32,000 bases of DNA, taken from Candidatus Saccharimonadota bacterium (GTDB taxonomy: Archaea > Nanobdellota > Nanobdellia > Pacearchaeales > GW2011-AR1). The stretch spans positions 60,001-92,000 of the forward strand of contig BPGA01000001.1 of NCBI GenBank assembly GCA_026002795.1. Direction: 5' to 3'. The translations under genes were made by a program, and so were the position numbers. Position 1 is the first letter of the stretch. Every line of letters begins with the position of its first letter. The notes under the pieces were generated by a model. That model was not told the DNA's origin. It ran no database searches and saw only the letters and a list, made by a program, of their open reading frames with translations. Positions 8,677 through 32,000 of the stretch are shown here, piece by piece.

Positions 8677-9438
8677 TTAAATCAAATCTTTGATTTTACC
8701 AAAAAAATAAGTTTTATCTTCACCTATAACATAAACATAAAAATCAAGTATTTTTTTATGAGGAATTATTGAGAAATTTTCATCATAACCATATTTGTAT
8801 TCATTAACTGAGGTTCCTTCAAAAATCTCTAAAAAACTTGGTAAGATTATGAATGTTTTTTCTTTATAATTTCCAACTAAAAAACATTTATACTCCTCTG
8901 TTTTAACTTTATCTTTTAAAATGATTGATGGATGTAAATGAGCTAAAACAACATACTTTATTTTTTTTGAAAATATTTCATTATAAATTTTGTGTCCGTG
9001 AAGAAAAGCAATTTCCTCTTCAATGTGAATTGCTTTTATTTTCCCTCCTAAATAATCAATAGTGTCGTGATTTCCTCTTATCAAAATTATATTTTCTTCT
9101 TTAAAATATTTTTTTAAAAATTCGTAAACGTCTAAAAAATCATCTCTTTCTTTTCTTTCAAAATAAAAGGCGTGTTTTATATCCCCAAGAAAAACAATTT
9201 TCTTTATGTTTTTTCCTTCTGATTTTATTTTTTTAAAAATTTTTTTTAAGTTAGAAATTGTTTCTTTAGCAAGACTTTTTGGAAAATAAACTCCTAAATC
9301 TTCTAGCATTCTATCATAACCTATATGTAAATCTCCTATAACAAGAATCTCTTTTTTTGGAAAAAATAAAGCTTTATCGACAAACTCAAAATTATTAAAG
9401 ATTTCCTGATTTTTTTCTTTTTTTATTTTTTCATTCAT
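8677..9438 (-). CDS. metallophosphoesterase (ICC-like, COG1407-type Lhr-associated)
   Basis: GDLHIGY, LGDIKH, GNHD and HGH phosphoesterase motifs. 8-nt overlap with the upstream Lhr-like helicase gene, which is a known conserved pairing. Confidence 0.8.
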   Translation of the reverse strand: MNEKIKKEKNQEIFNNFEFVDKALFFPKKEILVIGDLHIGYDRMLEDLGVYFPKSLAKETISNLKKIFKKIKSEGKNIKKIVFLGDIKHAFYFERKERDDFLDVYEFLKKYFKEENIILIRGNHDTIDYLGGKIKAIHIEEEIAFLHGHKIYNEIFSKKIKYVVLAHLHPSIILKDKVKTEEYKCFLVGNYKEKTFIILPSFLEIFEGTSVNEYKYGYDENFSIIPHKKILDFYVYVIGEDKTYFFGKIKDLI

Positions 9439-12031
9439 TTTCTTCTGCTTTTTTTAAAATTTTTTGTAAATGAAGCTCATGCATTCTTTTTAAAAAAGCC
9501 TGTTTATCTTCTATTCTTATCAAATCAGAGTGTCCTTGCAAAATTAGATTTAATGCAAAAGGAGAAGGAATTTCTGTATCTAAAATTTTAACTTTTATTT
9601 TTCCTTTTTCTATCCAGCTTATAACTTTTTTAGCATTTTCAAGATCCATTAAATCTTCCAAGACTTCTCTTCTTGCTTCTCTTAAAATTGGAAACTCTTT
9701 GCTTATTTTCTTTACTGTTGAAAATAAAAAATGAGATTTTAGTTGTTGCCTTCCAACTGATTTTGATTTTCCTTTGTAACTTCTTAAAATCATTAAAGCT
9801 CTTACAGCACAATGTCTAAATCTTCTTACTAAAACATCTGTTCTCTCTATTGCTTCTTTTAAAATTTCCTCTATATTTTTTTCATTAATTTCTTTTAAAG
9901 CTCTATTTATCATCATTTTTTCTCCTGAAATATAAAATCCATTATCTGAAATTCCTATTTCAATATCTCTACCTCCTAAAAGTCCTATAACATAACCAAA
10001 AGCTCTTGAAAGTGCATCATTAACACGTCTTCCATAAAGAGAGTGAAAAATAAGATATTTTTTTCCTTGATCATTAAATTTTTCAATAAGAAAAAGATTT
10101 TCATGTGGAATTTCTAAGAAAGAGTGTTGTTCTAAAAAATAATTGTAAATTGCTTCTGCTGTTTCTTTAGGAACATAAAGATAACTTTTTATAAAATTAA
10201 GTATTTTCTCTTTTGAATGGCCTAATTCAAGTTTTTTTCTCATAAGTTTTCTAAATTTATTAATTTCAAGAGCCGAGTCAAAGCTTAAAGGCAACATTTC
10301 AGAAAACCAAGAAGGAATTGTTGGATTTCTTTTTATTTCAGGTGTAACATAAAGATTCATTCCTCTCGTGTATCTGTAAAGATATTTTTTTCCACCTAAA
10401 ACAAAAACATCTCCTTGTTTCATTCTTGAAAGAAAGGTTTCGTCGATAACTCCTATAAATTCATCTGATCCTGCAATTTTCACGTTAATGTAAGATTCTT
10501 CAGGAATTGTACCAAGATTTGTAAGGTAAATAACTCTTGCGAGCTTTCCTCTTTTTCCAATTTGTTTCGTTTTTGGATCATACCAAATTTTTCCGTAGAC
10601 ATGGTTTTTTTCTAAAGAATACTCTCCAGAAAGATAACTTATAACATCAAGAAAATCTTTCCTTGTTAGTTCATGGTAACAATAACTTTTTTTAATTAAG
10701 TTAAAAAGCTCTTCTTCGTGCCATACTTTATGTATAGCCATACCAAAAATTTGCTGAGATAAAACATCTAAACAGTTCTTAGGAAATTTTATTTTGTTTA
10801 TTTTTCTTTCAGTTATTTCTTTTTGGATTATACAACATTCAACAAGATCATCTCTATCTAAAACAATAAATCTTCCTTTTGGAATTTCGTGAAGTTTGTG
10901 GCCAGATCTTCCAATTCTTTGCAATGCCCTAGAACTACTTTTAGGAGAGCCAAGCATTATAACTAAGTCGATATAACCTATATCAATCCCAAGTTCTAGA
11001 CTAGTTGAACAAACCACAACTTTAAGTTTTCCTTGTCTAAGCTTTTCCTCTATTTCAAATCTGTGTTTTTTACTTAAAGAAGAATGATGTGCTGCAATAT
11101 CCTCTTCTCCTATTTCTGTCGGAAATTTTTCTTTTAAAAAATTAACAACTCTTTCTGTTGCTGATCTTGTGTTTGTAAAGATAAGAGTTGTTTTGTGTTG
11201 TTTTACGAGTTTATAGATAAGCTCATACATTTTATGGTGAATTTCTTCATCTTCAATAATATTTTTTACAGGAGTTAAAACCTCAACATCTATTTTTTTA
11301 TTAAGAACGACTCTTGCAATTTCTATTTTTCTTGAATTGTCAATTCCTACTAAAAACAAAGCAACTTCTTCCATTGGTTCTATTGTCGCGCTTAAACCTA
11401 TTTTAACTGGCCATTGAGAGGAAATTTCATTAAGTCTTTCTAAAGTTAAACTTAAATGAGCTCCTCTTTTATTGTCAAGCGAATGAATTTCATCGACAAT
11501 ACAAAATTCTACAGAATTCATGTGCTTAACAAAATTTTTTGAAGAAAGAATTATTGCTAGAGATTCTGGAGTTGTTATAAGAATATGTGGAGGATTTTTT
11601 AGCATTTTAGTTCTTTCAGAAGGAGTTGTGTCTCCTGTTCTTAGTCCTACTCTAATTTTTTGAAGTTTTACCCCTTTTTTTTCTGCAATTTCCTCTATTT
11701 CTTTTAGTGGTTCTATAAGATTTTTGTGAATGTCATTGCTAAGAGCTTTTAAAGGAGAGGTATAAACTGCATAAACTTTATCTTCAAGTTTTTGTTTTTC
11801 AGCAAGATGAACAAGATAATTTAAAATAGAAAGAAAAGCAGTTAGTGTTTTTGTTCCGCCTGTTTCAGCTGAAATTAAGATGTTCTTTCTTTCCCAGATA
11901 GGTAAAACTCCGTATTTTTGTGTAAGAGAGAATTCTTTAAATTTTGAAAAAAACCACTCTTTAACAATTGGGTGAAGTATTTTTTTTATTTCTTCAGCAT
12001 TTCTCTCTCTTGCTTTTAAGATTTTTGTCAT
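9431..12031 (-). CDS. lhr: Lhr-like ATP-dependent DEAD/DEAH-box helicase
   Basis: 866 aa. Motif I AETGGTKT, motif II VDEIH, SAT, and motif VI QRIGRSGH, plus a long C-terminal Lhr/DEAD-associated region. Confidence 0.85.
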   Translation of the reverse strand: MTKILKARERNAEEIKKILHPIVKEWFFSKFKEFSLTQKYGVLPIWERKNILISAETGGTKTLTAFLSILNYLVHLAEKQKLEDKVYAVYTSPLKALSNDIHKNLIEPLKEIEEIAEKKGVKLQKIRVGLRTGDTTPSERTKMLKNPPHILITTPESLAIILSSKNFVKHMNSVEFCIVDEIHSLDNKRGAHLSLTLERLNEISSQWPVKIGLSATIEPMEEVALFLVGIDNSRKIEIARVVLNKKIDVEVLTPVKNIIEDEEIHHKMYELIYKLVKQHKTTLIFTNTRSATERVVNFLKEKFPTEIGEEDIAAHHSSLSKKHRFEIEEKLRQGKLKVVVCSTSLELGIDIGYIDLVIMLGSPKSSSRALQRIGRSGHKLHEIPKGRFIVLDRDDLVECCIIQKEITERKINKIKFPKNCLDVLSQQIFGMAIHKVWHEEELFNLIKKSYCYHELTRKDFLDVISYLSGEYSLEKNHVYGKIWYDPKTKQIGKRGKLARVIYLTNLGTIPEESYINVKIAGSDEFIGVIDETFLSRMKQGDVFVLGGKKYLYRYTRGMNLYVTPEIKRNPTIPSWFSEMLPLSFDSALEINKFRKLMRKKLELGHSKEKILNFIKSYLYVPKETAEAIYNYFLEQHSFLEIPHENLFLIEKFNDQGKKYLIFHSLYGRRVNDALSRAFGYVIGLLGGRDIEIGISDNGFYISGEKMMINRALKEINEKNIEEILKEAIERTDVLVRRFRHCAVRALMILRSYKGKSKSVGRQQLKSHFLFSTVKKISKEFPILREARREVLEDLMDLENAKKVISWIEKGKIKVKILDTEIPSPFALNLILQGHSDLIRIEDKQAFLKRMHELHLQKILKKAEENE

Positions 12032-20749: not shown

Positions 20750-21132
20750 TGCCGGAGATGTATAACCTCATGTTGGTCCATTATTTACCCTGAACATGTT
20801 ACCGCCATTATCGCCTAAAGCTGATTTGTGGTTGCGTCATGACACATATCCGAAATTGTCAGTATCTGCAGAAAAACTGAAAGCAGGAGCAGCAGCTGTT
20901 CCATTAGCAGCCTGAATTACTCTTCCAGATGTTATTACTGTAGTACCTCCTATTTGTAAATTACCTGAGACTAAATTTAATGAATCACCACTTGCTAAAT
21001 CTAATGCTATTTGCAGCTCCTCTAAACAACTGGTACATCTGGATTAAAGTAAAGATTAGCTGTTGTATTTATTGAACCAATAACATCTAATGTTTGTTGT
21101 GGTGTTGTCGTCCCAATCCGACGTTGCCAGAG
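20750..21132 (-). pseudogene. disrupted fibre-gene segment linking ORF 21133..23682 to ORF 19379..20749
   Basis: Homologous to intact sequence at 29875..30123, but with +1 insertions near 21006 and 21034. There is a 1-nt deletion inside the anchor at 21107..21128. In-frame TGA stops lie at 20837..20839 and 20768..20770. Confidence 0.7.
20856..21106 (-). repeat. module R1, copy a
   Basis: Near-identical to 29875..30123 apart from point differences and two +1 insertions. Encodes ...TPQQTLDV.GSINTTANLYFNPDVQLFRGAANRLDLASGDSLNLVSGNLQIGGTTVITSGR... Confidence 0.85.
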
Positions 21133-21342
21133 TTATCTAATACCAACACATTGCCCAACCCACTCGACCAGTAACAATAAGTCACCTCCTGTTCCTGCTC
21201 CATGAAGTGTCTCATTAGCAGAAATGATGTCCCAAGCCCTATCACCGCTTCTCTCTATTCTCAGTCTACCGGCATTTCCATTTGAGTCGCCGAAGAGGTG
21301 GAATTGTACTCCTGGATTCGTCGTCCCGATGCCGACGTTGCC
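21129..21342 (-). repeat. module R4, copy a (214 bp)
   Basis: Identical to 31328..31540 except for one extra t at 21172. Similarity stops exactly at the outer ends of the anchors. Confidence 0.9.
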
Positions 21343-23682
21343 GTTTTCGTCGACAGCGACTGCTAAAAGATTTCCTTGTGTATTAGTTAGCGCATTCTTT
21401 AAAGTTCCTGTAGCAACAAAAGATCCATCAATTAAAAATCCTCTAATTTCACAGTGGGGTTGGTTTGCTGTATCATCAAGCAAACATTCAACTGCTTTGT
21501 CTAAAGTTTCTGTGTTGTTTGCTCCTTCAAATATTGCTGCATATGGTCTTCTTGAACCGCTATTAGGTGATAATTGTGCTTTGTATAATCCAAGTCTTCC
21601 AAATGCAGAATCTAAATTAGTAGTAACTGCGCTCTCCCATGCGTCATAAGATGTTAAAATTCCAATTTGGTCTTTTCTTAGGTTGTTTAATGCTGTTGCT
21701 AAATTATCTGACTGTGTGGAGTTTCCATAAGTATCATAAGTGTTGTCGGATACTATAGTGTGGTTTGCTTTCCATATAATCGTTAACCTAAGACCTCTTC
21801 CAGAAGTGTCATAAACTGTTGTATTGCCTATCTTTAAAACTCTGTTTGCATTATTGTTTAATCCAGTACCTCTTATATAAATTGGAACTATTTTCGATAT
21901 AACATTTGTTCCTAGTGAATTAATTTCACATGTTCCATCAGCATTACAAGCTAATGCATTGCTTGCTGTTCCGCTTAATGTTCCATAAATAGTTCCAGTA
22001 GCTCTAATATCTCCAGCAACATCCAATTTATAAGCCGGACTTGCTGTCCCGATGCCGACGTTGCCGCTAGTTATTCTCATTCTTTCAACATTGTTTGTGT
22101 ATATAGCCAAATTACCATCAGATATCCACTGAAGTCCTGTATCGCTATCTCCAACGGCAAGAGATATTACTGGCGAACCACCCAAACCACTTCCACCTCT
22201 TACAAAGAGATTATTGTTGATATTAACATTTCCAGCAACTTGCAATTTTTCAGAAGGTGCTGTCGTCCCGATGCCGACGTTGCCATTCCAATTTTTTATA
22301 TAAATTGTTCCGTATTCGTTGTCATCTGGTGAGACTTCACGTATCTCAGGATAAGCAAACTGTACTTTATCACCTGCAACACCTGAGTAACAATAACCAA
22401 AACGAATGATCGCGTAAGCTGCATTACTTGGCATCCTCCAATCAGTTCCTATGGTTTTACTGGATTGAACATCCGAAATCCCATCCGCATTCGCATCAGT
22501 CACATATGAAGGATCAAGAAATCCATTCACTTTTCTCCAATCGCTTGAAGTAGTGGTAGTAGCCCAGAAATAAGGATTGTCCCAGGCTCCTGTAATGCGA
22601 TTATTGTTACTATCATAAACATAAAATCCAAGATACTTATAGCCAGATGTTCCAACTGTTTGCCTCATCCAAACACTGAATTCATATTTTTTATTTGGGT
22701 CTATTTTTACTCTTTTTTGATAATACGCCCATTGATAACAGCTTCCTGAATTTCCATTAGAGGTGCTTTCAAGAGCTTTAATCTGGGAACCATCAGTAAA
22801 AGTTGTTGTGACAGTAGTGACACTACCCCATGCATCAGAATCTCCCAAGTTAGTAGATGATTCTAGGAGGTTTGCACCGGCAATATTTTTAGCAGCTACA
22901 CCTCCAGCAATTTCAAGTTTGACATTTGGCGCTGTCGTCCCGATGCCGACGTTGCCGAGGCTTGTTATTACCATTCTATCGTTCCAACCATCAGTCCCCC
23001 TTGTCGTAAAGTACAAATCACCATAAGAATTTACGTGGTCTGTAATTTTGCCAGAAACATAACCTATAATTCCATTTGCCCCAGCAAAAGCAAGGGATGC
23101 GAAATTTCCAGCTGTACTATTAGTGTTTCTTAATTCAAGCGAGTTGCCGGTGCCTCCTGTGCCAGTTGATGTTTGCGGATTGATTATTACCAAACCTCTT
23201 GCAGAAGCACCACCGGTAGATATACTTGCTGCATAGCCTCCAGTATTTCCAGCTACTACCGTTAGCTTTTCTCCCGGCGCCGTCGTCCCGATGCCGACGT
23301 TGCCTGTTGTTGTCAAAACTAACCCTGTGCCGGTTTGCGGATTTAATCTGAAATTACCTGTATCGTCGACTCCGGTCCAAAATTGACGCGATGTAGAATC
23401 ATACCACTCAATATAATTCCACTTGCTTGTTGGAGAATCTGTCTGTCGCAATCTCAGTATGTTATCCGCTGTGGAAGATATTTCCAGCGGCGATCCGGGT
23501 CCCGTCGTCCCGATGCCGACGTTGCCGCCAAGATAGATATTTGTAGTCCCACCAGGGATTGCTATGAGATCAACACCATTTCTGTTTGTTATATCAACAT
23601 CGTAAGTCGTACCGTTACCAGCAATCACAAGACCAGAACCAGAATTGTAATACATCACTCCTCCACTAAAAGCCCCGGCCAA
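21133..23682 (-). CDS. fibre gene B central segment: GNVGIGTT-repeat protein with CBM-like and ILEI/GG-lectin-like inserts
   Basis: 849-aa ORF with 6 anchors in frame (21320, 22043, 22262, 22934, 23282, 23504). The apparent TTG start is internal. The C-terminus is cut by a +1 insertion (extra t at 21172 relative to the copy at 31328..31540). Confidence 0.75.
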   Translation of the reverse strand: MAGAFSGGVMYYNSGSGLVIAGNGTTYDVDITNRNGVDLIAIPGGTTNIYLGGNVGIGTTGPGSPLEISSTADNILRLRQTDSPTSKWNYIEWYDSTSRQFWTGVDDTGNFRLNPQTGTGLVLTTTGNVGIGTTAPGEKLTVVAGNTGGYAASISTGGASARGLVIINPQTSTGTGGTGNSLELRNTNSTAGNFASLAFAGANGIIGYVSGKITDHVNSYGDLYFTTRGTDGWNDRMVITSLGNVGIGTTAPNVKLEIAGGVAAKNIAGANLLESSTNLGDSDAWGSVTTVTTTFTDGSQIKALESTSNGNSGSCYQWAYYQKRVKIDPNKKYEFSVWMRQTVGTSGYKYLGFYVYDSNNNRITGAWDNPYFWATTTTSSDWRKVNGFLDPSYVTDANADGISDVQSSKTIGTDWRMPSNAAYAIIRFGYCYSGVAGDKVQFAYPEIREVSPDDNEYGTIYIKNWNGNVGIGTTAPSEKLQVAGNVNINNNLFVRGGSGLGGSPVISLAVGDSDTGLQWISDGNLAIYTNNVERMRITSGNVGIGTASPAYKLDVAGDIRATGTIYGTLSGTASNALACNADGTCEINSLGTNVISKIVPIYIRGTGLNNNANRVLKIGNTTVYDTSGRGLRLTIIWKANHTIVSDNTYDTYGNSTQSDNLATALNNLRKDQIGILTSYDAWESAVTTNLDSAFGRLGLYKAQLSPNSGSRRPYAAIFEGANNTETLDKAVECLLDDTANQPHCEIRGFLIDGSFVATGTLKNALTNTQGNLLAVAVDENGNVGIGTTNPGVQFHLFGDSNGNAGRLRIERSGDRAWDIISANETLHGAGTGGDLLLLVEWVGQCVGIR

Positions 23683-24197
23683 CCTTGAGACGATGAAATT
23701 TTTAATCTTCCCGCAACTTCAAGTTTTTCATTCGGACTCGTCGTTCCAATGCCGACGTTGCCTGAAGTATCTATAATCATTCGCGTATTTCCCGTTTGTC
23801 TAAATTCTATCGGTTCATTTGCATTATCTAAAGTTTCAATAATTAATTTAGATAAACCAGTTCCATCTCCTGTTGATTCAAAACGTATACTTCCAGCATC
23901 AGTATTTGCATCCCATCTTAATCCATAATTATTGTCTATATGTATGTTGCCCCCAGAAACATGTAATTTTCCCGCGGGTCCCGTCGTCCCGATGCCGACG
24001 TTGCCAGCGTTAGTAATTTGAAATGCGTTCCATCCTGCGCCACTTGTCCAGAAACCGACATTTGCGCCATTCTGCCCGACAAACATAGTCTTACCATTAT
24101 CTAACCATACACCACCGTCTCCACCAGCGTCACCTGTATGAATACGACCGGAAACTCGTAAATCAACAGTAGTGCCACCCCCGCCAACTACATTCAA
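23655..24197 (-). CDS. fibre gene B fragment (GNVGIGTT repeats)
   Basis: 180-aa ORF with anchors at 23740 and 23983. It overlaps both neighbouring fragments out of frame, which implies frameshifts near 23.68-23.74 kb and inside the anchor at 24214. Confidence 0.65.
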   Translation of the reverse strand: MNVVGGGGTTVDLRVSGRIHTGDAGGDGGVWLDNGKTMFVGQNGANVGFWTSGAGWNAFQITNAGNVGIGTTGPAGKLHVSGGNIHIDNNYGLRWDANTDAGSIRFESTGDGTGLSKLIIETLDNANEPIEFRQTGNTRMIIDTSGNVGIGTTSPNEKLEVAGRLKISSSQGWPGLLVEE

Positions 24198-24774
24198 CTT
24201 TGCTCCAGGTGTCGTCGTGCCGATGCCGACGTCTGCCTGTATTGCTATTCACAAAAAGAGTATTTGTGTCAACTGTGAAATTCTGTCCAACAACAACATT
24301 ATTATTAAATGTCTTATCTCCTGCAAAAATCTGCGTTCCTGTAGAAACAACTCCTGATTGTGTTGAAGAAGCATCTCTTATTGTAACATTACTTGCGCTT
24401 GTAATTCTTCCTTGAGCATCAACTGTGAATCTTCCCACTACAATATCTCCGCCATAAGTTCCTGCTGTTACTCCTGTGTTTGAAAGAGAGAAGGTTACAT
24501 TTCCGCTGCCAACAAGTCTATCTGTCAGTGTTCCTGAAATTGACATGCCTGTTCCTTGGACAATAGATCCTTTAACAAAACCAGCGCTTGTGTTAACTTC
24601 CTGAAGCTGACTTAATGTTACAGCATCTTGTGCAGATGTTCCATTTGCAAGATTAATGATTTTGTTGTTGTCCATGTTTATTGTTCCGTTGAAAACAGCA
24701 GAACCATTTACATGGAGTTTTTGTTGTGGTGTTGTTGTTCCAATGCCGACATAGTTTGTGTTGGTAATTGTCAA
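24163..24774 (-). CDS. fibre gene B fragment carrying tail-fibre-like module R2a
   Basis: 203-aa ORF. VTAGTYGGDIVVGRFTVDAQGRITSASNVTI resembles motifs I recall from phage tail-fibre proteins. It terminates because the anchor at 24214..24237 has a 1-nt insertion (GTCTGCC instead of GTTGCC). Confidence 0.65.
   Translation of the reverse strand: MTITNTNYVGIGTTTPQQKLHVNGSAVFNGTINMDNNKIINLANGTSAQDAVTLSQLQEVNTSAGFVKGSIVQGTGMSISGTLTDRLVGSGNVTFSLSNTGVTAGTYGGDIVVGRFTVDAQGRITSASNVTIRDASSTQSGVVSTGTQIFAGDKTFNNNVVVGQNFTVDTNTLFVNSNTGRRRHRHDDTWSKVECSWRGWHYC
24238..24756 (-). repeat. module R2, copy a (519 bp)
   Basis: Anchor-to-anchor segment. Aligns without indels to 25142..25660, with scattered substitutions and one ~30-nt divergent patch. 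Its last 140 nt (24617..24756) recur at 29659..29798. Confidence 0.9.
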
Positions 24775-25118
24775 GAATCGTTACTCTTGACTTGTTCCTC
24801 CTCGCTGGAGCAATACGACCAATATCAAAGAGATCGTTGATAGAATCAAGCGTCAAAACCCAGGATGGACCATTTATGTCTCGCCTGCGTCGGTACTTGA
24901 TGAGATGCACTAAAACTAGTTTCAAGTTTGCCCCTAAGGCCACATTCTCGTCTTTCCCCAGCTGCAAGCAATATGTCAGTACCGATTCGTCGTTGAAAGC
25001 CGATTAGTAGCCGAGGAGTATTGGAATCTAATTCGTCCGCCATCGTAGCTCCGTTGCACCTGAAGCGGTGGCTCCCCCAATGCACCCGCTTGAATATCGA
25101 GTTTTGCCTGCCGGTGTT
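24757..25118 (-). pseudogene. GC-rich degraded module between the two R2 copies
   Basis: No single long frame. Three overlapping ORFs in different frames (24653..24967, 24768..25007, 24846..25085). Removing one A from the AAAA run just downstream of anchor 25119 gives PAGKLDIQAGALGEPPLQVQRSYDGGRIRFQYSSATNRLSTTNRY*. Confidence 0.55.
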
Positions 25119-25579
25119 GTCGTCCCGATGCCGACTCTATCTGTATTGCTGTTCACAAAAAGCGTATTTGTGTCAACTGTGAAATTCTGTCCAACAACAA
25201 CACTATTATTAAATGTCTTAGCTCCTGCAAAAGTCTGCGTTCCTGTAGAAACAACTCCTGATTGTGTTGCAGAAGCATCTCTTATTGTAACATTACTTGC
25301 GCTTGTAATTCTTCCTTGATTATCAACTGTGAATCTTCCCACTACAATATCTCCGCCATAAGTTCCTGCTGTTACTCCTGTGTTTGAAAGAGAGAAAGTT
25401 ACATTTCCGCTGCCAACAAGTCTATCTGTCAGTGTTCCTGAAATTGACATGCCTGTTCCTTGGACAATAGATCCTTTAACAAAACCAGCGCTTGTGTTAA
25501 CTTCCTGAAGCTGACTTAATGTTACAGCATCCTGAGGGTTTGTTGCATTAGCAAGGTTGATGATTTTGTTATTGTCCAT
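25028..25579 (-). CDS. fibre gene B fragment carrying module R2b
   Basis: 183-aa ORF nearly identical to 24163..24774 over R2. The frame stays open upstream of the annotated Met through the anchor at 25638. Confidence 0.65.
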   Translation of the reverse strand: MDNNKIINLANATNPQDAVTLSQLQEVNTSAGFVKGSIVQGTGMSISGTLTDRLVGSGNVTFSLSNTGVTAGTYGGDIVVGRFTVDNQGRITSASNVTIRDASATQSGVVSTGTQTFAGAKTFNNSVVVGQNFTVDTNTLFVNSNTDRVGIGTTTPAGKTRYSSGCIGGATASGATELRWRTN

Positions 25580-25660
25580 GTTTATTGTTCCGTTGAAAAC
25601 AGCAGAACCATTTACATGGAGTTTTTGTTGTGGTGTTGTTGTTCCAATGCCGACGTTGCC
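25142..25660 (-). repeat. module R2, copy b (519 bp)
   Basis: See R2a. The two copies are separated by the GC-rich segment 24757..25118 plus the anchor at 25119. Confidence 0.9.
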
Positions 25661-25738
25661 GCCTGCATCTATTCTAAACCTTTCACATACCTGCTGTTGA
25701 ACAATGCAAGCTGGTTTGTTGTTGGCAAAAACATTCCG

Positions 25739-25989
25739 TTGTCAGTATCTGCAGAAAAACTGAAAGCAGGAGCAGTCGCTGTCTCCATTAGCAGCCTGAA
25801 TTCATTCTTCCAGATGTTATTACTGTAGTACCTCCTATTTGTAAATTACCTGAAACTAAATTTAATGAATCACCAGTTGCTAAATCTAATCTATTTGCAG
25901 CTCCTCTAAACAACTGTACATCTGGATTAAAGTAAAGATTAGCTGTTGTATTTATTGAACCTACAACATCTAATGTTTGTTGTGGTGTT
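25739..25989 (-). repeat. module R1, copy b
   Basis: Near-identical to 29875..30123 with two +1 insertions. The homology extends over 25521..26012 versus 29659..30146. Confidence 0.85.
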
Positions 25990-26144
25990 GCTGTTCCAAT
26001 GCCGACTCTGCCTGAAGTATCATTAACAAACAAATCATTAGTAACATTAAGACTTAGTCCTCCTGTTCCGCTACCTTGTATTTCAAGTTTTGCACTCGGA
26101 CTCGTCGTCCCGATGCCGACGTTGCCGGAAGTTGTTAATCGCAT
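25788..26144 (-). CDS. fibre gene B fragment (modules R3a + R1b)
   Basis: 118-aa ORF with anchors at 26104 and 25990. It is truncated by +1 insertions in R1b relative to R1c. Confidence 0.6.
   Translation of the reverse strand: MRLTTSGNVGIGTTSPSAKLEIQGSGTGGLSLNVTNDLFVNDTSGRVGIGTATPQQTLDVVGSINTTANLYFNPDVQLFRGAANRLDLATGDSLNLVSGNLQIGGTTVITSGRMNSGC
26013..26126 (-). repeat. module R3, copy a (114 bp)
   Basis: Roughly 90% identical by eye to 31214..31327. Encodes .P.AKLEIQGSGTGGLSLNVTNDLFVNDTSG. Confidence 0.85.
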
Positions 26145-26619
26145 AACCTCTGTTCCAATACTAGTGCTTGAGCCTATAGCAAACCTTAGATCGTAAGGAG
26201 AACCAGTGAAGCCCGCCCTCCAAACACCACTGGCTTCAGATCCTTGCGACCAAGTAAGCCATGCTTGGTCAGCATCTAAAGTTTTGTAATTTTGCTAGCA
26301 ATAGATCTCGAACTACCTGCAGCTTCGCCCCCGGATTCGTCGTCCCGATGCCGACGTTGCCTGATGTTGTCATTCTTATTATCTTCAACTACCGTTTCCA
26401 AATGCTACACTGATTGTTTGACCACATACCTATTAATAACCTGTTCGCAACGTCATTCCCGTCCCTCCTGAGATCCTTGAATATTAGCTATCGATTATAA
26501 GCATATCTGGCTCTCCCATCCGAGTGAAGTTATTATACCAGCCATTAGCAACCACTAAGCATGTCTTGTCTGCTCCAGATCTATAGCAGTGATTCGTTCA
26601 CTTATAATATTCTCAGAGT
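26145..26619 (-). pseudogene. decayed fibre-gene remnant between the LamG gene and fibre gene B
   Basis: Contains a perfect anchor (26339..26361) and coding-like patches (e.g. MTTSGNVGIGTTNPGAKLQVV), but stops in all frames. Confidence 0.55.
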
Positions 26620-28260
26620 CTACCGATTCTCCTGAGGCAAGAGGTCGAATTGTACTCCTGGCCCCGTCGTCCCGATGCCGACGTTGCCGCCTGTAGTTAT
26701 GTGAACTAAGTTGTTAATATGTGTATTAACTTGATTATCATTGTTGATATAGAGATCATTTCCTATAGCTTGGATTTCGTTAGCATCAAGATGAATACCA
26801 GCTGTGCCCCCAGAGTTTAAAATTTGCAATACTCCAGATCCTACACCTGTATTTACATCACTATCAGACCTAAGCCTCACATCTCCGACTACTTCTAATT
26901 TTTCTGTTGGATTCGTCGTTCCAATGCCAACGTTGCCGTTAAATATAACATCCCTATTTGTTTTTAAGTTCATTGCTTGGAACCATTGAGATCCATTATA
27001 ATAACTAAAAATTAGTTGATCAGGTTCGCCACTATATTGACTCCCTCTCTTTGTTATAACCCAAAAAGCATTTGAACCGGATTCTCTAAATTCCATTTGA
27101 GGAGAGCTTGGACCTGTTGGAGAAGTGCCTTCTATTTTAATAATAGAGCTAACAACATGTAACTTCGCCCCCGGCGTCGTCGTCCCGATGCCGACGTTGC
27201 CGCTTGTTCCGTTGGCAAAGAAAAATACAGAATTGGTTGTATTCACAAGTCTAAATATATCTGAAGTAATTGTGTTTTGTTGAATGCCTCTTAAATACTG
27301 GAGTTTTATTTCTTCTTCACTTAAAGCTCTATCATAAACTCTTACCTCATCAATTACTCCTGAAAATGGTCTAGGATCTGTTGTTATCCAAATTCCGATA
27401 TTTAAATTTCCTGTTCCAAAATTTAAGTTGCCGCCAGAAAGTGTTCTAATTCCATCAAGAATTCCATTAAGATAAATCCTCATTTCAAATGTTGAATTGT
27501 CATAAGTTGCGGCAATATGATACCATCTGTTATTTGATAGTGTTGTGTTTGCAGAAAGTGTTTGTTGTGTTCCGTTGTTTATACTTAAAAATAATTTGTT
27601 GTTAAAAATTCTGAAGTAATTTGATGAAGGAGACTCTCTTCCAAAGATCATCTGATCATTTGAGACTGCTGTTGGGTATATCCAAGCTTCCCAGGTTAAT
27701 GATTTTGCGTTGTTTAGTGCTTGAGATGTCGTTACACTGACATAGCTTCCGTTATTTGATGCTAGTCTTGTAAAGTTTAAAGCAATTCCCATTTTTCCTG
27801 ATGTAAATGTTGGATTAATGCAAGAAGTTCCTACACAAGTAAGAGTACCGTCTGTGCCAAATGGACCTCTGTCATAAGTTAAGCTACCAGAACCTTCTGA
27901 AAAAGGTAGATAAAGCATTAAACCATCTGGAGTTGCATATCCTGGCTGGAATATTGTACTATTTGTTATAATGGTGCCACTTACATTAAGTAAACCCTCA
28001 ATATTTGTATTCCCAGAGGCATTAATATCCTTAACAAAAAGCGCTGTAATTCTATTGGTTAAACTTCCAAGAAAACCAAAAAAGCCGTAATTTGATGTTG
28101 AAACATTGCCTAGTACAGTAAGATTTCCTGTGTCTCCATGAATTCTTACAAGATCTGTTCCAGTTTGATTCTGGAACCTATAATCTCCTGCTGAAACAAA
28201 GTTTATGCTAGTTGCAATTAATAAAATTATTAAAATTTCCGCTAAATAACCTCTTTTCAT
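26620..28260 (-). CDS. secreted LamG/concanavalin-A-like lectin domain protein with C-terminal GNVGIGTT repeats
   Basis: Signal peptide MKRGYLAEILIILLIATSINFVSA. LamG-like core (LYLPFSEGSG...ALNF...SLTWEAWIYPT...WYHIAATYD...IYLNGILDG...GVIDEVRVYDRALSEEEI). Three anchors (27179, 26915, 26666). It ends 12 codons into a module that is much longer in the other copies. Confidence 0.8.
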   Translation of the reverse strand: MKRGYLAEILIILLIATSINFVSAGDYRFQNQTGTDLVRIHGDTGNLTVLGNVSTSNYGFFGFLGSLTNRITALFVKDINASGNTNIEGLLNVSGTIITNSTIFQPGYATPDGLMLYLPFSEGSGSLTYDRGPFGTDGTLTCVGTSCINPTFTSGKMGIALNFTRLASNNGSYVSVTTSQALNNAKSLTWEAWIYPTAVSNDQMIFGRESPSSNYFRIFNNKLFLSINNGTQQTLSANTTLSNNRWYHIAATYDNSTFEMRIYLNGILDGIRTLSGGNLNFGTGNLNIGIWITTDPRPFSGVIDEVRVYDRALSEEEIKLQYLRGIQQNTITSDIFRLVNTTNSVFFFANGTSGNVGIGTTTPGAKLHVVSSIIKIEGTSPTGPSSPQMEFRESGSNAFWVITKRGSQYSGEPDQLIFSYYNGSQWFQAMNLKTNRDVIFNGNVGIGTTNPTEKLEVVGDVRLRSDSDVNTGVGSGVLQILNSGGTAGIHLDANEIQAIGNDLYINNDNQVNTHINNLVHITTGGNVGIGTTGPGVQFDLLPQENR

Positions 28261-28655
28261 TTTAATTTTTTCTCGACAAATTTAATTAACATGTCTATGA
28301 TTTTCTTAATGTCATTTTCGTTGTTTACCAAAAAATCCTCGGTAATTTTTTTGCCATAGTAGACAATATCATTCCTAAACTTCCTTAGATTATCAATAAG
28401 TTTTGCATAAGAATCATCAATTTCATAATTCTCAACAAAATAATCTAATAATTTCACATGACTAAGTGTTTTATATCCATCAGAATACATAACTGCTGTC
28501 AATAATTCTTTAATTATTTCATAGTATTCTTCAATAAACTTGTAAGGCTTATCTCTTGGAAGAATTTTTATGATTTCTAATCTATCCTTTGCCATTTTAA
28601 ATAAGTCTTTAGCTCTTTCTTTATCTTTTGAAATTTTGAATATCTCTTTCATCAC
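28257..28655 (-). CDS. HEPN-domain protein (putative toxin partner of the MNT)
   Basis: 132-aa all-helical ORF. LRKFRNDIVYYG sits where the HEPN R-x4-6-H motif belongs, but with Tyr in place of His. Its stop overlaps the LamG gene start (ATGA), and its start overlaps the MNT stop. Confidence 0.6.
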   Translation of the reverse strand: MMKEIFKISKDKERAKDLFKMAKDRLEIIKILPRDKPYKFIEEYYEIIKELLTAVMYSDGYKTLSHVKLLDYFVENYEIDDSYAKLIDNLRKFRNDIVYYGKKITEDFLVNNENDIKKIIDMLIKFVEKKLK

Positions 28656-29230
28656 AAACCTCCGTAAAGCACTAAACCATTCTTTATTTTTTTTTGAATA
28701 TTCTTATCTAGCTTAGAAAAATCATCTAGGATAATCACTCTAATTCTTCTTTTTAAAACACTTTCAAATTTGGAAAAATCAATCTCTTTCTTTATTTTAG
28801 AAACAACAAAAAAATCAATATCGCTTGATTCTACATCCTCTCCTCTTAAATAAGATCCAAATAAGATTATTGCTTTTGGATGAAGCTCATTAATAATTTT
28901 GTCTCTTAATTCCTTCAAAGAAAGAATGTTATAAGACATTTTTAACCATATAAAAGAGTCATTTTCTCTATTAGCGACATATCCGTCAAACGGCTTAGAT
29001 TTCCTCTTAATTATAAGCCCTTTCTTAGTTAGTTCTCTTATATAGTTTCTAACAGAAGGGTGTGCTAATTTTATCTTTTTACTTATCTCTTTTATGAAAT
29101 GTATTGTAGTTGGCTCTCTAAAGAACACCTCTAAAACCCGGATATAGCTACATTTAACCATATGGTATAATAATGTACCCTTTGGTATATAAATATTCCC
29201 TTTGGCTATTTTAACTTTATTGAATTCCAT
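28652..29230 (-). CDS. winged-HTH + minimal nucleotidyltransferase (MNT, NTP_transf_2-like)
   Basis: LFGSYLRGEDVESSDIDFFVV is the GS-x-n-DxD Pol-beta-type NTase signature. The N-terminal SVRNYIRELTKKGLIIKR looks like a wHTH. The start lies 1 nt after the stop of fibre gene A. Confidence 0.75.
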   Translation of the reverse strand: MEFNKVKIAKGNIYIPKGTLLYHMVKCSYIRVLEVFFREPTTIHFIKEISKKIKLAHPSVRNYIRELTKKGLIIKRKSKPFDGYVANRENDSFIWLKMSYNILSLKELRDKIINELHPKAIILFGSYLRGEDVESSDIDFFVVSKIKKEIDFSKFESVLKRRIRVIILDDFSKLDKNIQKKIKNGLVLYGGL

Positions 29231-29231
29231 T

Positions 29232-30632
29232 TTATATTCTAAATATCATATCACCTCCTTGAGTAAAAACACGGGCTGAACCTATGAACATTGTTTGAGT
29301 AACATTCGCATCACCAACAACATTTAGAGTGTTTTGTGGAGTGCTTGTGTTTATGCCAAGTCTTTCTGTTGTATTGTTCCAGAATAGTTTAGCATTATTT
29401 TGGCTTAAAACACCGTTAGCTCCTGCAAAAATTAAAGAGCCTTGATTAAAGCTTGAAAGTGTTAATCCTGCAAATGTTGGACTTGATGTTGTGTTTATGT
29501 CTTGTGGAAGGCTAAATGTCCATTGCCTATTTTGAGTTAAATCTTGAGGCCCTGTTGGTGTTACTGAAATTTGATTTGCTGTTCCAATCATCTCAAGTGT
29601 TCTTGATTGTGGAACTGCGTTTGTTGCAGTTGAGTTTACTGATTGCAATTGTGAAAGTGTTACAGCATCTTGTGCAGATGTTCCATTTGCAAGATTAATG
29701 ATTTTGTTGTTGTCCATGTTTATTGTTCCGTTGAAAACAGCAGAACCATTTACATGGAGTTTTTGTTGTGGTGTTGTTGTAGCAATGCCGACGTTGCCGC
29801 TACTGTCTATTCTTACTCTTTCTAAACCTGCTGTTGAAAATGCAAGCTGATTTGTTGTTGGTATGAACATTCCGTTGTCAGTATCTGCAGAAAAACTGAA
29901 AGCAGGAGCAGCAGCTGTTCCATTAGCAGCCTGAATTACTCTTCCAGATGTTATTACTGTAGTACCTCCTATTTGTAAATTACCTGAGACTAAATTTAAT
30001 GAATCACCGCTTGCTAAATCTAATCTATTTGCAGCTCCTCTAAACAACTGTACATCTGGATTAAAGTAAAGATTAGCTGTTGTATTTATTGAACCAACAA
30101 CATCTAATGTTTGTTGTGGTGTTGTTGTTCCAATGCCGACTCTGCCTGTGTTTCCTACAAAAGTTACAAACTCTGAATTAGAATCATTTAAAAAGGCTAA
30201 CCTATAATCTCCTGCACCAGAATTCCAGTTAACAATGTTCCTTAATTTTATATCTCTTGTTGCCTGAACAACTCCTCCAGCACTTACGTTGCTGTCATAT
30301 TTTCCTCTGAAAATCACATCAGGAGAGTCTGAACTTGAATTATCTGCTACATCGTTTGCAAGTGCTATAGCACTTCTTGAAAATAAGATATCACGCCACC
30401 TATAACTAGAATTTCCTAAATCAAAACTATTATCTAAATCAGGAATTAAGCTTCCATTAATTTCTAAGTTATTAACTTGAAGTGCAGAAATATTAACAAA
30501 ATAACCTGTTCTGAGCATAAATATCCCCACCAATAATTGAAAGCCCACCATTCTGCCAACCACCATTAAAATCAAAATTGCCATATACAGATGTGTTAAG
30601 TGGCATGAAAAAGCTAGAGTCATAACCATCAA
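29232..30632 (-). CDS. fibre gene A, 3' segment (modules R1c, R2-like N-part, unique tail-fibre-like C-terminus)
   Basis: 466-aa ORF. The first ~45 aa are out-of-frame read-through: the true frame joins ORF 30493..31089 via a 1-nt indel near 30509 (...GGDIYAQ|TGYFVNISALQVNNLEINGS). Anchors at 30124 and 29776. Confidence 0.7.
   Translation of the reverse strand: MMVMTLAFSCHLTHLYMAILILMVVGRMVGFQLLVGIFMLRTGYFVNISALQVNNLEINGSLIPDLDNSFDLGNSSYRWRDILFSRSAIALANDVADNSSSDSPDVIFRGKYDSNVSAGGVVQATRDIKLRNIVNWNSGAGDYRLAFLNDSNSEFVTFVGNTGRVGIGTTTPQQTLDVVGSINTTANLYFNPDVQLFRGAANRLDLASGDSLNLVSGNLQIGGTTVITSGRVIQAANGTAAAPAFSFSADTDNGMFIPTTNQLAFSTAGLERVRIDSSGNVGIATTTPQQKLHVNGSAVFNGTINMDNNKIINLANGTSAQDAVTLSQLQSVNSTATNAVPQSRTLEMIGTANQISVTPTGPQDLTQNRQWTFSLPQDINTTSSPTFAGLTLSSFNQGSLIFAGANGVLSQNNAKLFWNNTTERLGINTSTPQNTLNVVGDANVTQTMFIGSARVFTQGGDMIFRI
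29875..30123 (-). repeat. module R1, copy c (intact frame)
   Basis: Reference copy, in frame within ORF 29232..30632. Confidence 0.85.
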
Positions 30633-31089
30633 GTTTGTCTGCGTTTACATTAGTTAAGCCAGAACCATTTCCTGAAAAAGTTCCATAAATTGTTCCTGTT
30701 GCATTAATGTCACCTATAACATTCAACTTATTTGCAGGTGTTGTCGTTCCGATGCCGACGTTGCCTGTGTTTGAATTTACAAACAAAACATTAGAGCCTA
30801 CTGTGAGGTTGTTGTTAATAACTGCATTGTTTCTTATTGTTGTTGTTCCTGAAGAAGCTCCAAGTCTTAAGGTTGTTGCAGCTCCACCAATGTCAAGAGT
30901 TGTTGCAGTTGTATTTATTAAAGCGAAAGTTGTTGATGGTGTTGTTATATTTGAAATTATTGATGGACTTGTTAATGTTGGTGTGTTATTAAAAACAAGA
31001 GCTCCAGAACCTGTTTCATCTGTTACAGACAGAAGCAACATTAGCAGAAGAAATTGTAGAAACAAGATTTGAAGAAGAATCTGTTGCAA
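30493..31089 (-). CDS. fibre gene A, middle segment
   Basis: 198-aa ORF. Contains NVNADKLDGYDSSFF (a tail-fibre-like motif) and the anchor at 30743. It overlaps both neighbours out of frame. Confidence 0.65.
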   Translation of the reverse strand: MQQILLQILFLQFLLLMLLLSVTDETGSGALVFNNTPTLTSPSIISNITTPSTTFALINTTATTLDIGGAATTLRLGASSGTTTIRNNAVINNNLTVGSNVLFVNSNTGNVGIGTTTPANKLNVIGDINATGTIYGTFSGNGSGLTNVNADKLDGYDSSFFMPLNTSVYGNFDFNGGWQNGGLSIIGGDIYAQNRLFC

Positions 31090-32000
31090 CCAACCTATTT
31101 GCTGTTAATCCTGAAATTCTTGCGTTTGTTCCATAAATTGTTCCTGTTGCATTAATGTCACCAACAACATTCAACTTATTTGAAGGTGTTGTTGTTCCAA
31201 TACCAACATTACCTGAAGTGTCATTAACAAACAAATCATTAGTAACATTAAGACTTAGTCCTCCTGTTCCGCTACCTTGTATTTCAAGTTTTGCCCCCGG
31301 CGCCGTCGTTCCAATGCCGACGTTGCCAGAGTTATCTAATACCAACACATTGCCCAACCCACTCGACCAGAACAATAAGTCACCTCCTGTTCCTGCTCCA
31401 TGAAGTGTCTCATTAGCAGAAATGATGTCCCAAGCCCTATCACCGCTTCTCTCTATTCTCAGTCTACCGGCATTTCCATTTGAGTCGCCGAAGAGGTGGA
31501 ATTGTACTCCTGGATTCGTCGTCCCGATGCCGACGTTGCCAGTGCTGGTTATTGCCATCATGTCCCCTGGTCCCGGCGTCCATAACCTTGCTACATTCCC
31601 TATGCTATACCAGACATATTTTTGACCCGCTCCTGCACTAACATTTGGAGTAAATCCTCGGTCGTAGAACGATAGAGATGCGCCGGTTCCTGCGGATGAA
31701 ATTTCACCACCCTGATTGATATTTCCAGATATAATAGCTCCAGTGGCATCAGCAACGATAGCACCTACAACGTGAAGTTTAGTTTCAGGATTCGTCGTCC
31801 CGATGCCGACGTTGCCTGGTATTATCATTCCATCGCTTGGCGGCACAGTTCCTGCATATGAACCAACTGAGAGACCTCCTGTTGCTCCTGATACCGCATA
31901 AATACCTAACTTTCTGTTGCCGTTTATCCACACTGCGAGCGGATCGCCTGTATTTGCATTCTCAAAAACTAAATGGGCATTGTCTGTAGTGTCTTGGTCA
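31016..32000 (-). CDS. fibre gene A, 5'-ward segment (partial, runs off the window)
   Basis: The ORF-track entry 31016..31933 starts at an internal GTG. I translated 31934..31999 in the same frame (DQDTTDNAHLVFENANTGDPLA) and found no stop. Anchors at 31794, 31518, 31305, 31191. Confidence 0.7.
   Translation of the reverse strand, partial: DQDTTDNAHLVFENANTGDPLAVWINGNRKLGIYAVSGATGGLSVGSYAGTVPPSDGMIIPGNVGIGTTNPETKLHVVGAIVADATGAIISGNINQGGEISSAGTGASLSFYDRGFTPNVSAGAGQKYVWYSIGNVARLWTPGPGDMMAITSTGNVGIGTTNPGVQFHLFGDSNGNAGRLRIERSGDRAWDIISANETLHGAGTGGDLLFWSSGLGNVLVLDNSGNVGIGTTAPGAKLEIQGSGTGGLSLNVTNDLFVNDTSGNVGIGTTTPSNKLNVVGDINATGTIYGTNARISGLTANRLVATDSSSNLVSTISSANVASVCNR
31214..31327 (-). repeat. module R3, copy b (114 bp)
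   Basis: See R3a. The flanking modules differ between the two copies. Confidence 0.85.
31328..31540 (-). repeat. module R4, copy b (213 bp, intact frame)
   Basis: See R4a. Encodes NPGVQFHLFGDSNGNAGRLRIERSGDRAWDIISANETLHGAGTGGDLLFWSSGLGNVLVLDNS. Confidence 0.9.

Follow-up and report, generated by a model that had tools for sequence, protein, structure and literature searches.

A winged-helix nucleotidyltransferase/HEPN gene pair between surface-fibre genes of a DPANN archaeon: a candidate autonomous, autorepressed toxin-antitoxin-like module

In a 32,000-nucleotide stretch of archaeal DNA (contig BPGA01000001.1 of GenBank assembly GCA_026002795.1, positions 60,001 to 92,000; hereafter the window, from whose first letter all positions are counted), two overlapping minus-strand genes stand between genes for surface-fibre proteins. 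The upstream one encodes a minimal nucleotidyltransferase (MNT) with an N-terminal winged helix-turn-helix (wHTH) and the downstream one a HEPN-fold protein; both products are identical to database proteins of a Candidatus Pacearchaeota archaeon metagenome-assembled genome (MAG) of the DPANN group, where their contig measures 535 kb (KatS3mg001_102 and KatS3mg001_101, respectively). We consider it fairly probable that this pair is an autonomous, autorepressed MNT/HEPN module of the type called PDC-M05, with the gene for a secreted LamG protein coupled to its 3' end. The module appears to be toxin-antitoxin-like, a candidate anti-virus system from a family spread across DPANN archaea; its toxicity, RNase activity, AMPylation, and DNA binding are all inferred. 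A first-pass annotation, made from the sequence alone, had taken the pair to be wired into the operon of the surface proteins. That view did not hold up, as the pair has a promoter of its own and belongs to a DPANN-wide family found in highly diverse gene contexts. On the corrected reading there is no upstream wiring of the pair into the fibre operon, and its location between fibre genes is no sign of a role in fibre function or variation.

Four co-directional genes had been described here as following one another with essentially no spacers, and four minus-strand open reading frames (ORFs) do lie at the coordinates concerned. These are the 3' part of a larger fibre gene, here fibre gene A (29232..30632, with a match to YadA_stalk PF05662, E=2.5e-8), the wHTH-MNT gene (28652..29161), the HEPN-fold gene (28257..28652), and the gene for a secreted protein with a LamG_3 domain and GNVGIGTT repeats (26620..28260, Laminin_G_3 E=8e-31). 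The two downstream junctions were confirmed in the sequence. The MNT stop codon TGA (28654-28652) shares its A with a HEPN start codon ATG at 28652 (TGATG), which gives a product of 131 residues, or of 132 residues if the alternative GTG at 28655 is used; a Shine-Dalgarno sequence GGAGG (28659..28663, minus strand) is found 6 nt ahead of this ATG, within the C-terminal Y-G-G codons of the MNT gene. At the other end, the HEPN stop and the LamG start overlap in the ATGA at 28260-28257. Since the LamG ATG overlaps the HEPN stop, the LamG gene is probably co-transcribed with the pair. Tight or overlapping co-directional genes are frequent in this genome (e.g., 8677..9438 and 9431..12031). What did not stand was the upstream junction, where a 70-nt spacer (29162..29231, minus strand) separates the fibre stop from the probable MNT start and contains a promoter and a candidate operator, the same DNA having been annotated as MNT codons 1-23.

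The longest ORF for the MNT begins with an ATG at 29230, leaving a gap of 1 nt to the fibre stop codon (29234-29232), and would encode 192 residues; this ATG had been taken as the start. Comparison with relatives indicates that it is an artefact of ORF extension and that the true start is most likely the ATG at 29161, which gives a protein of 169 residues. Most MNT homologues are 170 residues long, their start methionine aligned with residue 24 of the 192-residue ORF, and when we aligned the DNA ahead of this methionine from 78 distinct loci the methionine corresponding to 29161 was conserved across these relatives. An in-frame stop codon occurred no more than 69 nt from the conserved methionine in 61 of the 78 upstream regions, and in 40 of the 78 a stop lay between the TATA box and the ATG. 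None of the 78 had a Shine-Dalgarno-like motif ahead of the MNT methionine. In the AlphaFold2 model, residues 1-23 of the 192-residue ORF had low predicted local confidence (pLDDT), with values of 40-72. The peptide NIYIPKGT within this segment was considered as evidence for a coding N-terminal extension and rejected, given that the conserved element is TATA/operator DNA and that in-frame stops are present: NIYIPKGT is simply AAT-ATT-TAT-ATA-CC..., i.e., the TATA box and operator DNA translated in frame. Over-extended starts occur in about one fifth of the database homologues (185-218 residues; P0002-P0034 and others), with NIYIPKDT as their common peptide, and the deposited start of KatS3mg001_102 is probably also 23 codons too long, reaching into the promoter.

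The archaeal TATA box TTTATATA (29186..29193, minus strand) begins at -32 relative to the ATG at 29161. It was perfect in 39 of the 78 distinct upstream regions and matched at seven or more of its eight positions in 58; in 35 loci it started at -32, mostly in the form AACATTTATATA. Archaeal leaderless genes have a TATA box centred about 28 nt ahead of the ATG, and TATA-like boxes at about -28 to -33 were seen ahead of further genes in the window. From this TATA-to-ATG spacing we predict that the MNT-HEPN transcript is probably leaderless or near-leaderless. The first-pass annotation had the pair translationally coupled to the upstream fibre gene; since the pair has its own conserved TATA promoter, it is not coupled in this way, and transcriptional read-through from the fibre gene into the pair may still occur.

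Overlapping the 3' end of the TATA box is an operator-like palindrome, TACC-N4-GGTA (29176..29187, minus strand), and a third half-site, TACC (29164..29167, minus strand), falls immediately upstream of the MNT start codon. The half-sites changed together from lineage to lineage, and four types were found among the relatives (TACC/GGTA, TAGC/GCTA, TAAC/GTTA, and TATC/GATA). In the 35 loci of equal spacing, the variable base was complementary between half-sites 1 and 2 in 22 and between half-sites 2 and 3 in 25, values not reached in any of 5000 column shuffles for either comparison, although the shuffles disregard phylogenetic relatedness, which inflates the result. Variants of the recognition helix went along with particular half-sites: SVRN with TACC, SVIN with TAGC, and STKK with TAAC. 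Remoter clades had different palindromes at the equivalent place (e.g., GTACA-N2-TGTAC and GTCCTAA...TTAGGAC). Tested locus by locus against shuffles, the presence of a perfect palindrome was weak evidence by itself, with 16 of 78 loci at or below 0.05 and the window site at 0.76; the informative test was that of column covariation between loci. Half-site covariation together with the tracking of the recognition helix would mark autoregulation by the winged helix of the module itself, for which binding is predicted, and a candidate palindromic operator overlapping the promoter of an operon with a DNA-binding component is the arrangement expected of an autoregulated operon. This fits the earlier proposal that the wHTH-bearing MNT may be a DNA-binding regulator. 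As the start at 29161 is preceded by a conserved TATA box and an operator-like palindrome, the MNT-HEPN pair is probably an autonomous unit, leaderless and autorepressed. The further proposal that the pair regulates fibre expression fared less well: the pair's own promoter is the one place in the 32-kb window where TACCN4GGTA occurs, the other fibre genes lacking it, so that nothing points to control over them.

The MNT assignment was supported by profile, catalytic motif, and fold. The protein scored 37.4 bits against PF18765 (cut-off 26.9) and 36.3 bits against PF01909 (cut-off 21), while its winged-helix matches in Pfam were sub-threshold (HTH_24 E=2.3e-4). In the AlphaFold2 model (pLDDT 89.6) a winged helix at the N-terminus is followed by a C-terminal MNT domain. 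By Foldseek, the N-terminal domain (28961..29158, minus strand; residues ~25-90 in the 192-residue numbering, recognition helix ~57-69) matched MarR, ArsR/SmtB, and IclR regulators, and the C-terminal domain matched the MNT/MntA structures 8xeo_B, 7bxo_E, 2rff, and 1no5. The nucleotidyltransferase (NTase) motif G125-S126-x10-D137-x-D139 (28814..28858, minus strand) is intact and was conserved in 120 relatives, G125 and D139 being invariant and S126 and D137 each present in 119 of the 120. The protein is thus a minimal nucleotidyltransferase of the pol-beta superfamily, and the winged helix and NTase fold originally read from the sequence were both borne out.

For the second protein the Pfam evidence was poor, with 16 bits against HEPN PF05168, under the gathering cut-off of 22. 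Only 7 of 89 relatives matched PF05168 at E<=0.01, one relative carried a precomputed PF05168 match, and a HEPN profile search of Protein Data Bank (PDB) chain sequences found coiled-coil noise only. The AlphaFold2 model had a pLDDT of 93.7, and among the top nine distinct PDB entries found with it by Foldseek eight were HEPN proteins or the HEPN-related YutE, with template modelling (TM) scores of 0.59-0.69. These structural matches included AF0298 (2hsb, the top match), TT1696, HepT, the sacsin HEPN domain, and ST0689. On the strength of the predicted structure, the second protein has the HEPN fold, as had been proposed.

Its putative active site departs from the canonical one. Anantharaman et al. 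2013 placed the Rx4-6H motif at the end of helix 3 (PMC3710099), and at this place, the end of the helix spanning residues 80-99, the window protein has R93-N94-D-I-V-Y98-Y99-G100 (28353..28376, minus strand), i.e., R93-x4-Y98; no member of the family had a histidine at that position. Among 120 close relatives (55-76% identity) Y98 was present in all, along with Y44, E45, E49, R90, R93, Y99, G100, and N110, and among 89 distant relatives Y98 was the sole fully invariant column, R93 and G100 coming close to it. Our full-library search with the HEPN profile found 524 representative clusters at E<=1e-3, and down to about 30% identity the motif shrinks to R93-N94-x3-Y98-x-G100 plus Y44, G59, and H65. 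The tyrosine that the first-pass annotation had pointed out in RNDIVYYG, where the catalytic histidine is expected, was therefore seen in every relative we examined, and being present throughout the relatives it is a fixed trait of the family and no local mutation. Since hhalign was uninformative (0.7% probability for the family profile against a single canonical HepT encoded at locus L012), the register of Tyr98 with the canonical histidine rests on the R-N-x3-[H/Y] pattern and on its location where helix 3 ends. H65 (28458..28460, minus strand), located in the insert between helices 2 and 3, was conserved in 118 of the 120 close relatives and in 104 of 109 aligned distant ones. In AF0298-like HEPN-T proteins, too, the canonical histidine is replaced and a second conserved histidine lies in the helix-2/helix-3 insert (PMC3710099). 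With the motif ending helix 80-99, H65 in the insert, and AF0298 as the top fold match, the window protein fits this class. Together, R-N-x3-Y-x-G and the alternative His65 suggest that the HEPN active site is non-canonical or else that the cognate NTase targets the tyrosine.

Searches with the PADLOC profiles matched the MNT to PDC-M05A (E=5.6e-12, over the winged helix as well as the NTase) and the HEPN protein to PDC-M05B (E=3.8e-5), both matches being judged on profile E-values only. Of 89 diverse family members, 60 matched PDC-M05B and essentially nothing else. PDC-M05 is an NTase plus HEPN candidate defence system that is commoner among Archaea than among Bacteria, and DPANN show an enrichment of multiple PDCs (PMC12988326). 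Its M05A is an HTH protein with a KNTase-like domain and its M05B a HEPN protein, the same two-gene architecture and order as in the window, where the M05A- and M05B-matching genes are adjacent and overlap. Against the M05 models the scores of the window proteins are weak, and the pair would thus represent a divergent DPANN branch. The anti-phage activity reported for PDC-M05 comes from a single cold-seep, non-DPANN example, which made E. coli resistant to one phage or more and whose M05A had ArsR-like HTH and KNTase-like nucleotidyltransferase domains (bioRxiv 10.1101/2024.09.26.614923). For the uncharacterised, archaea-enriched PDC-M05, the window thus offers testable detail on a DPANN branch: the promoter and candidate operator, the prediction of leaderless transcription, and R-N-x3-Y-x-G with His65.

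The pair can also be compared with HepT-MntA, a type VII toxin-antitoxin system known from Shewanella (SO_3165/3166) and from Aphanizomenon (HEPN/MNT), in which the tyrosine next to the HEPN active site is AMPylated. As in that system, the window MNT has GSx10DxD, is encoded upstream of the HEPN gene and overlaps it, and the HEPN protein has a conserved tyrosine beside the active-site arginine; the HepT-MntA structures 7bxo, 6m6u, 5yep, and 8xeh were among the fold matches of the window proteins. There are differences, however. HepT belongs to DUF86 (PF01934) and has RX4HXY, whereas the window protein has tyrosine in place of the histidine and is PF05168/AF0298-like, and Pfam scans found no PF01934 match. 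The structural matches to MntA covered the NTase half of the window MNT only and the winged helix was not detected in them, and the score against the NCBIfam model of MntA, NF047752, was 30.3 bits relative to a cut-off of 60. Another comparison is with the AF0298-like HEPN-T group of the PF05168 class, which gave the best fold match (2hsb), has an alternative histidine that parallels H65, and is MNT-associated; there, however, aspartate replaces the histidine where the window family has tyrosine, and the PF05168 score of the window protein was below the cut-off. Finally, Makarova, Wolf, and Koonin 2019 described a DPANN-specific MNT-HEPN cluster, cls.004259 (NEQ050), that is unusually conserved and found in housekeeping context, which they read as hinting that its role is more basic (PMC6393860). 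Compared by its published description, this cluster is likewise MNT plus HEPN, DPANN-restricted, highly conserved, and often in housekeeping context; it is described as an MNT-HEPN fusion, whereas the window genes are separate, and there was no MNT-HEPN fusion among the 150 best representative clusters.

On the reading of the pair as a PDC-M05-type module, the winged helix of the MNT would, like DNA-binding antitoxins, bind the palindrome and repress the pair's own promoter. The HEPN protein would be an AF0298-like RNase or RNA-binding effector using R93/N94, with His65 replacing the canonical histidine, and the cognate MNT would keep it from acting by forming a complex with it and possibly by AMPylating the invariant Tyr98, by analogy to HepT-MntA. 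The LamG protein would be translated off the pair's transcript through termination-reinitiation, and the site between fibre genes would be the sort of place where such modules settle, a recombining and fast-evolving surface-protein locus.

Scanning GTDB species genomes and JGI metagenomes yielded 160 loci, which with the window and 12 further loci formed 138 clusters at 90% HEPN identity; the HEPN profile itself matched at least 1073 clusters at 90% identity. In 126 of the 138 non-redundant clusters the HEPN gene was immediately preceded, on its own strand, by the MNT gene. Named sources were nearly all DPANN (Pace-, Woese-, Nano-, Aenigm-, and Micrarchaeota), with non-DPANN labels on a few MAGs (Methanosarcinales, Thermoplasmata, Euryarchaeota) and on one short Bacteroidota contig. 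This contig, of 2790 bp, carries the pair P0017/P0179, and as the naming is otherwise DPANN-only it is probably mis-binned. In some genomes two or three paralogous pairs form tandem or divergent arrays (L088:8578-13061 is among these loci), with three complete pairs in L020 (8310-11478) and two in L066 (5140-7465). At L027 (9472-12153) a second HTH-NTase/HEPN pair and a RelE-like pair follow downstream, and RelE/ParE-like, PIN, PemK, MazE, and canonical MNT/HepT genes were found near the pair in various loci. As far as gene order can tell, the arrays and the nearby toxin-antitoxin genes are island-like, toxin-antitoxin-like behaviour.

Several observations weigh against a toxin-antitoxin-like module, and most of them can be taken together with an alternative that we regard as unlikely, if far from negligible: that the pair serves DPANN as a housekeeping or regulatory unit specific to the lineage, in which a two-subunit NTase, with the HEPN protein as its non-catalytic, substrate-binding subunit, carries a DNA-binding domain, and the promoter stands at the head of operons and controls the downstream gene, often one for a secreted or membrane protein such as the LamG adhesin of the window. 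Identity of 55-76% across many Pacearchaeota is unusually high for a toxin-antitoxin module, most of the scanned MAGs have one copy, and no relatives were found on viral contigs in 2.9 million scanned, which lends no support to mobility. The canonical catalytic histidine is missing in every member, and the HEPN protein could therefore be non-catalytic; set against this, the conserved R93, N94, H65, and E45 resemble an active site and not a decayed one. Neighbouring genes are in numerous cases housekeeping genes, like those of the Makarova et al. cluster with its "house-keeping context" (PMC6393860), and the HEPN stop is often overlapped by a downstream gene of any function (Pelota-like, methylase-like, phosphatase); yet there is neither a conserved third gene across the loci, 63 of 82 downstream genes being singletons, nor conserved synteny. 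After further NTase genes (7/128) and Laminin_G_3 (4/128), the downstream neighbours were many single families of housekeeping genes, among them Met-tRNA synthetase, ScpB, methyltransferases, and M48 peptidase. The neglect of relatedness in the covariation shuffles also counts against our preferred reading. The arrays of two or three pairs beside other toxin-antitoxin genes in some genomes, the confinement of the window's candidate operator to the pair's own promoter, and a candidate defence system as the sole library match all speak for the module and against the housekeeping unit.

Not expected of a purely incidental location was an excess of hydrophobic N-termini downstream. An N-terminal hydrophobic segment was predicted for the product of the co-directional downstream gene in 34 of 82 cases relative to 236 of 1035 in the background (23%; p~2e-4) and in 18 of 35 when the downstream gene overlapped or was no more than 25 nt away, whereas upstream neighbours were at background (18/90). 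Downstream LamG_3 genes were likewise enriched (4/128 loci vs 3/981 background ORFs, p=0.0045), with one of the four convergent. The hydrophobic-segment call used a crude hydrophobicity rule and the counts are small, which limits what the enrichment can contribute to the housekeeping or regulatory alternative. The bias toward secreted proteins is modest but significant and merits a larger survey. A bolder reading makes the family a DPANN-wide regulatory cassette and no plain toxin-antitoxin module; its strong, self-repressed leaderless promoter would gate a coupled downstream gene, disproportionately one for a secreted or membrane protein and here that for the LamG/fibre adhesin, a reading we hold to be decidedly unlikely. 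Were it true, these episymbiotic archaea would produce surface proteins according to the state of an NTase/HEPN(Tyr) sensor pair.

A survey for such pairs beside fibre or LamG genes had been suggested, and adjacency did recur, without being an obligate link. Fibre/LamG genes were immediate neighbours in 7 of the 138 clusters (~5%; the window, L006, L012, L022, L027, L055, and L084), or in 8 of 234 neighbour slots compared with 12 of 981 background ORFs (odds ratio 2.9, p=0.025). The LamG_3 neighbours were missed by tblastn with the window LamG domain, and we used iterated hidden Markov model searches and Pfam scans instead. The adjacency is a modest enrichment and no obligate association, and the concern that the pair might be a sporadic insertion at this site in one genome only was not borne out either. 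The LamG protein of L006 is about 24% identical to that of the window and the L006 pair 59-66% identical to the window pair, so the trio was not inherited as a unit. In this groundwater relative (L006:911-10399, and similarly L007-L011 and L107), a 1864-residue giant fibre, an AAA_14/DUF4143 ATPase, and a 52-residue ORF precede the pair; an overlapping LamG_3 gene (464 residues) and then a LamG plus GNVGIGT fibre come after it, and an NYN-domain gene is located upstream of the giant fibre.

Two further suggestions for the pair concern its location. Toxin-antitoxin cassettes stabilise superintegrons and genomic islands, and the pair might be an addiction module stabilising a recombining fibre/LamG locus against deletion. 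Near-identical blocks flank the MNT-HEPN-LamG unit (25806-26014 vs 29940-30148, 98%), recombination between which could delete the unit, the architecture is toxin-antitoxin-like, and fibre/LamG neighbours recur as described. That enrichment is weak, though, with about 95% of family members not beside fibre/LamG genes, and the window fibre genes look decayed (frameshifts, fragments) and not protected. Stabilisation would moreover be a by-product of any toxin-antitoxin module, with no distinct mechanism, and we judge this explanation improbable. More improbable still, to the point that we give it very little credence, is that the pair has a working part in a fibre-variation mechanism, for instance as a modifier of nucleic acid or protein when cassettes are exchanged. 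The location inside a repeat-rich fibre locus speaks for it and nothing else does: the family is mostly found away from fibre genes, the pair has its own promoter and is predicted to be autoregulated, its candidate operator is absent from the other fibre genes, and it has no link to a recombinase, a reverse transcriptase, or any other enzyme of variation. The first-pass annotation had listed such a role among its options, and we found nothing that ties the pair to a variation mechanism.

The surrounding fibre region has features of its own. Its G+C content (19-32 kb) is 36-45%, compared with 24-30% elsewhere in the window, and the MNT-HEPN pair, at about 28%, resembles the genome background, unlike the fibre genes. 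The rest of the window has cellular housekeeping functions (Lhr helicase, ribonucleotide reductase, ScpA, an M48 peptidase, and two tRNAs). Fibre gene A forms the last part of a longer gene, which runs past the end of the window and is broken by two frameshifts in the assembly. It is split into the minus-strand ORFs 31016..31933, 30493..31089, and 29232..30632, with frame switches near 30493-30632 and 31016-31089, and an intact 950-residue homologue at L027 (L027:6323-9175) aligns across the junction '...GGDIYAQ / NISALQVNNL...'. The frame switches mean that the gene is a pseudogene or that the assembly has an indel in this repeat-rich DNA.

Near-identical (96-100%) blocks of 150-300 nt recur among the fibre genes to either side of the MNT-HEPN-LamG unit: besides the pair of blocks given above, 20856-21005 with 29875-30024, 21173-21342 with 31371-31540, and 24232-24531 with 25136-25435. 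These blocks suggest that the fibre cassettes have recently undergone gene conversion or have recombined with one another. A GNVGIGTT-encoding unit of 61-64 nt is present in more than 20 copies, and the region 23655-26620 (minus strand) holds short fibre-like ORF fragments in differing frames. The LamG ORF ends with '...GVQFDLLPQENR*' where a paralogue runs on with '...GVQFHLFGDSNG...'; as the paralogue continues beyond the end of the LamG ORF, the LamG gene may be 3'-truncated. At their other ends, the LamG gene (window 28100-28260) and the L027 fibre gene (L027:6323-6480) encode a common N-terminus, a signal peptide followed by 'SAGDY(R/K)FQN.(T/S)GTDL...GNTGNLTVLGN', which looks like a secretion or anchor head placed on differing fibre bodies.

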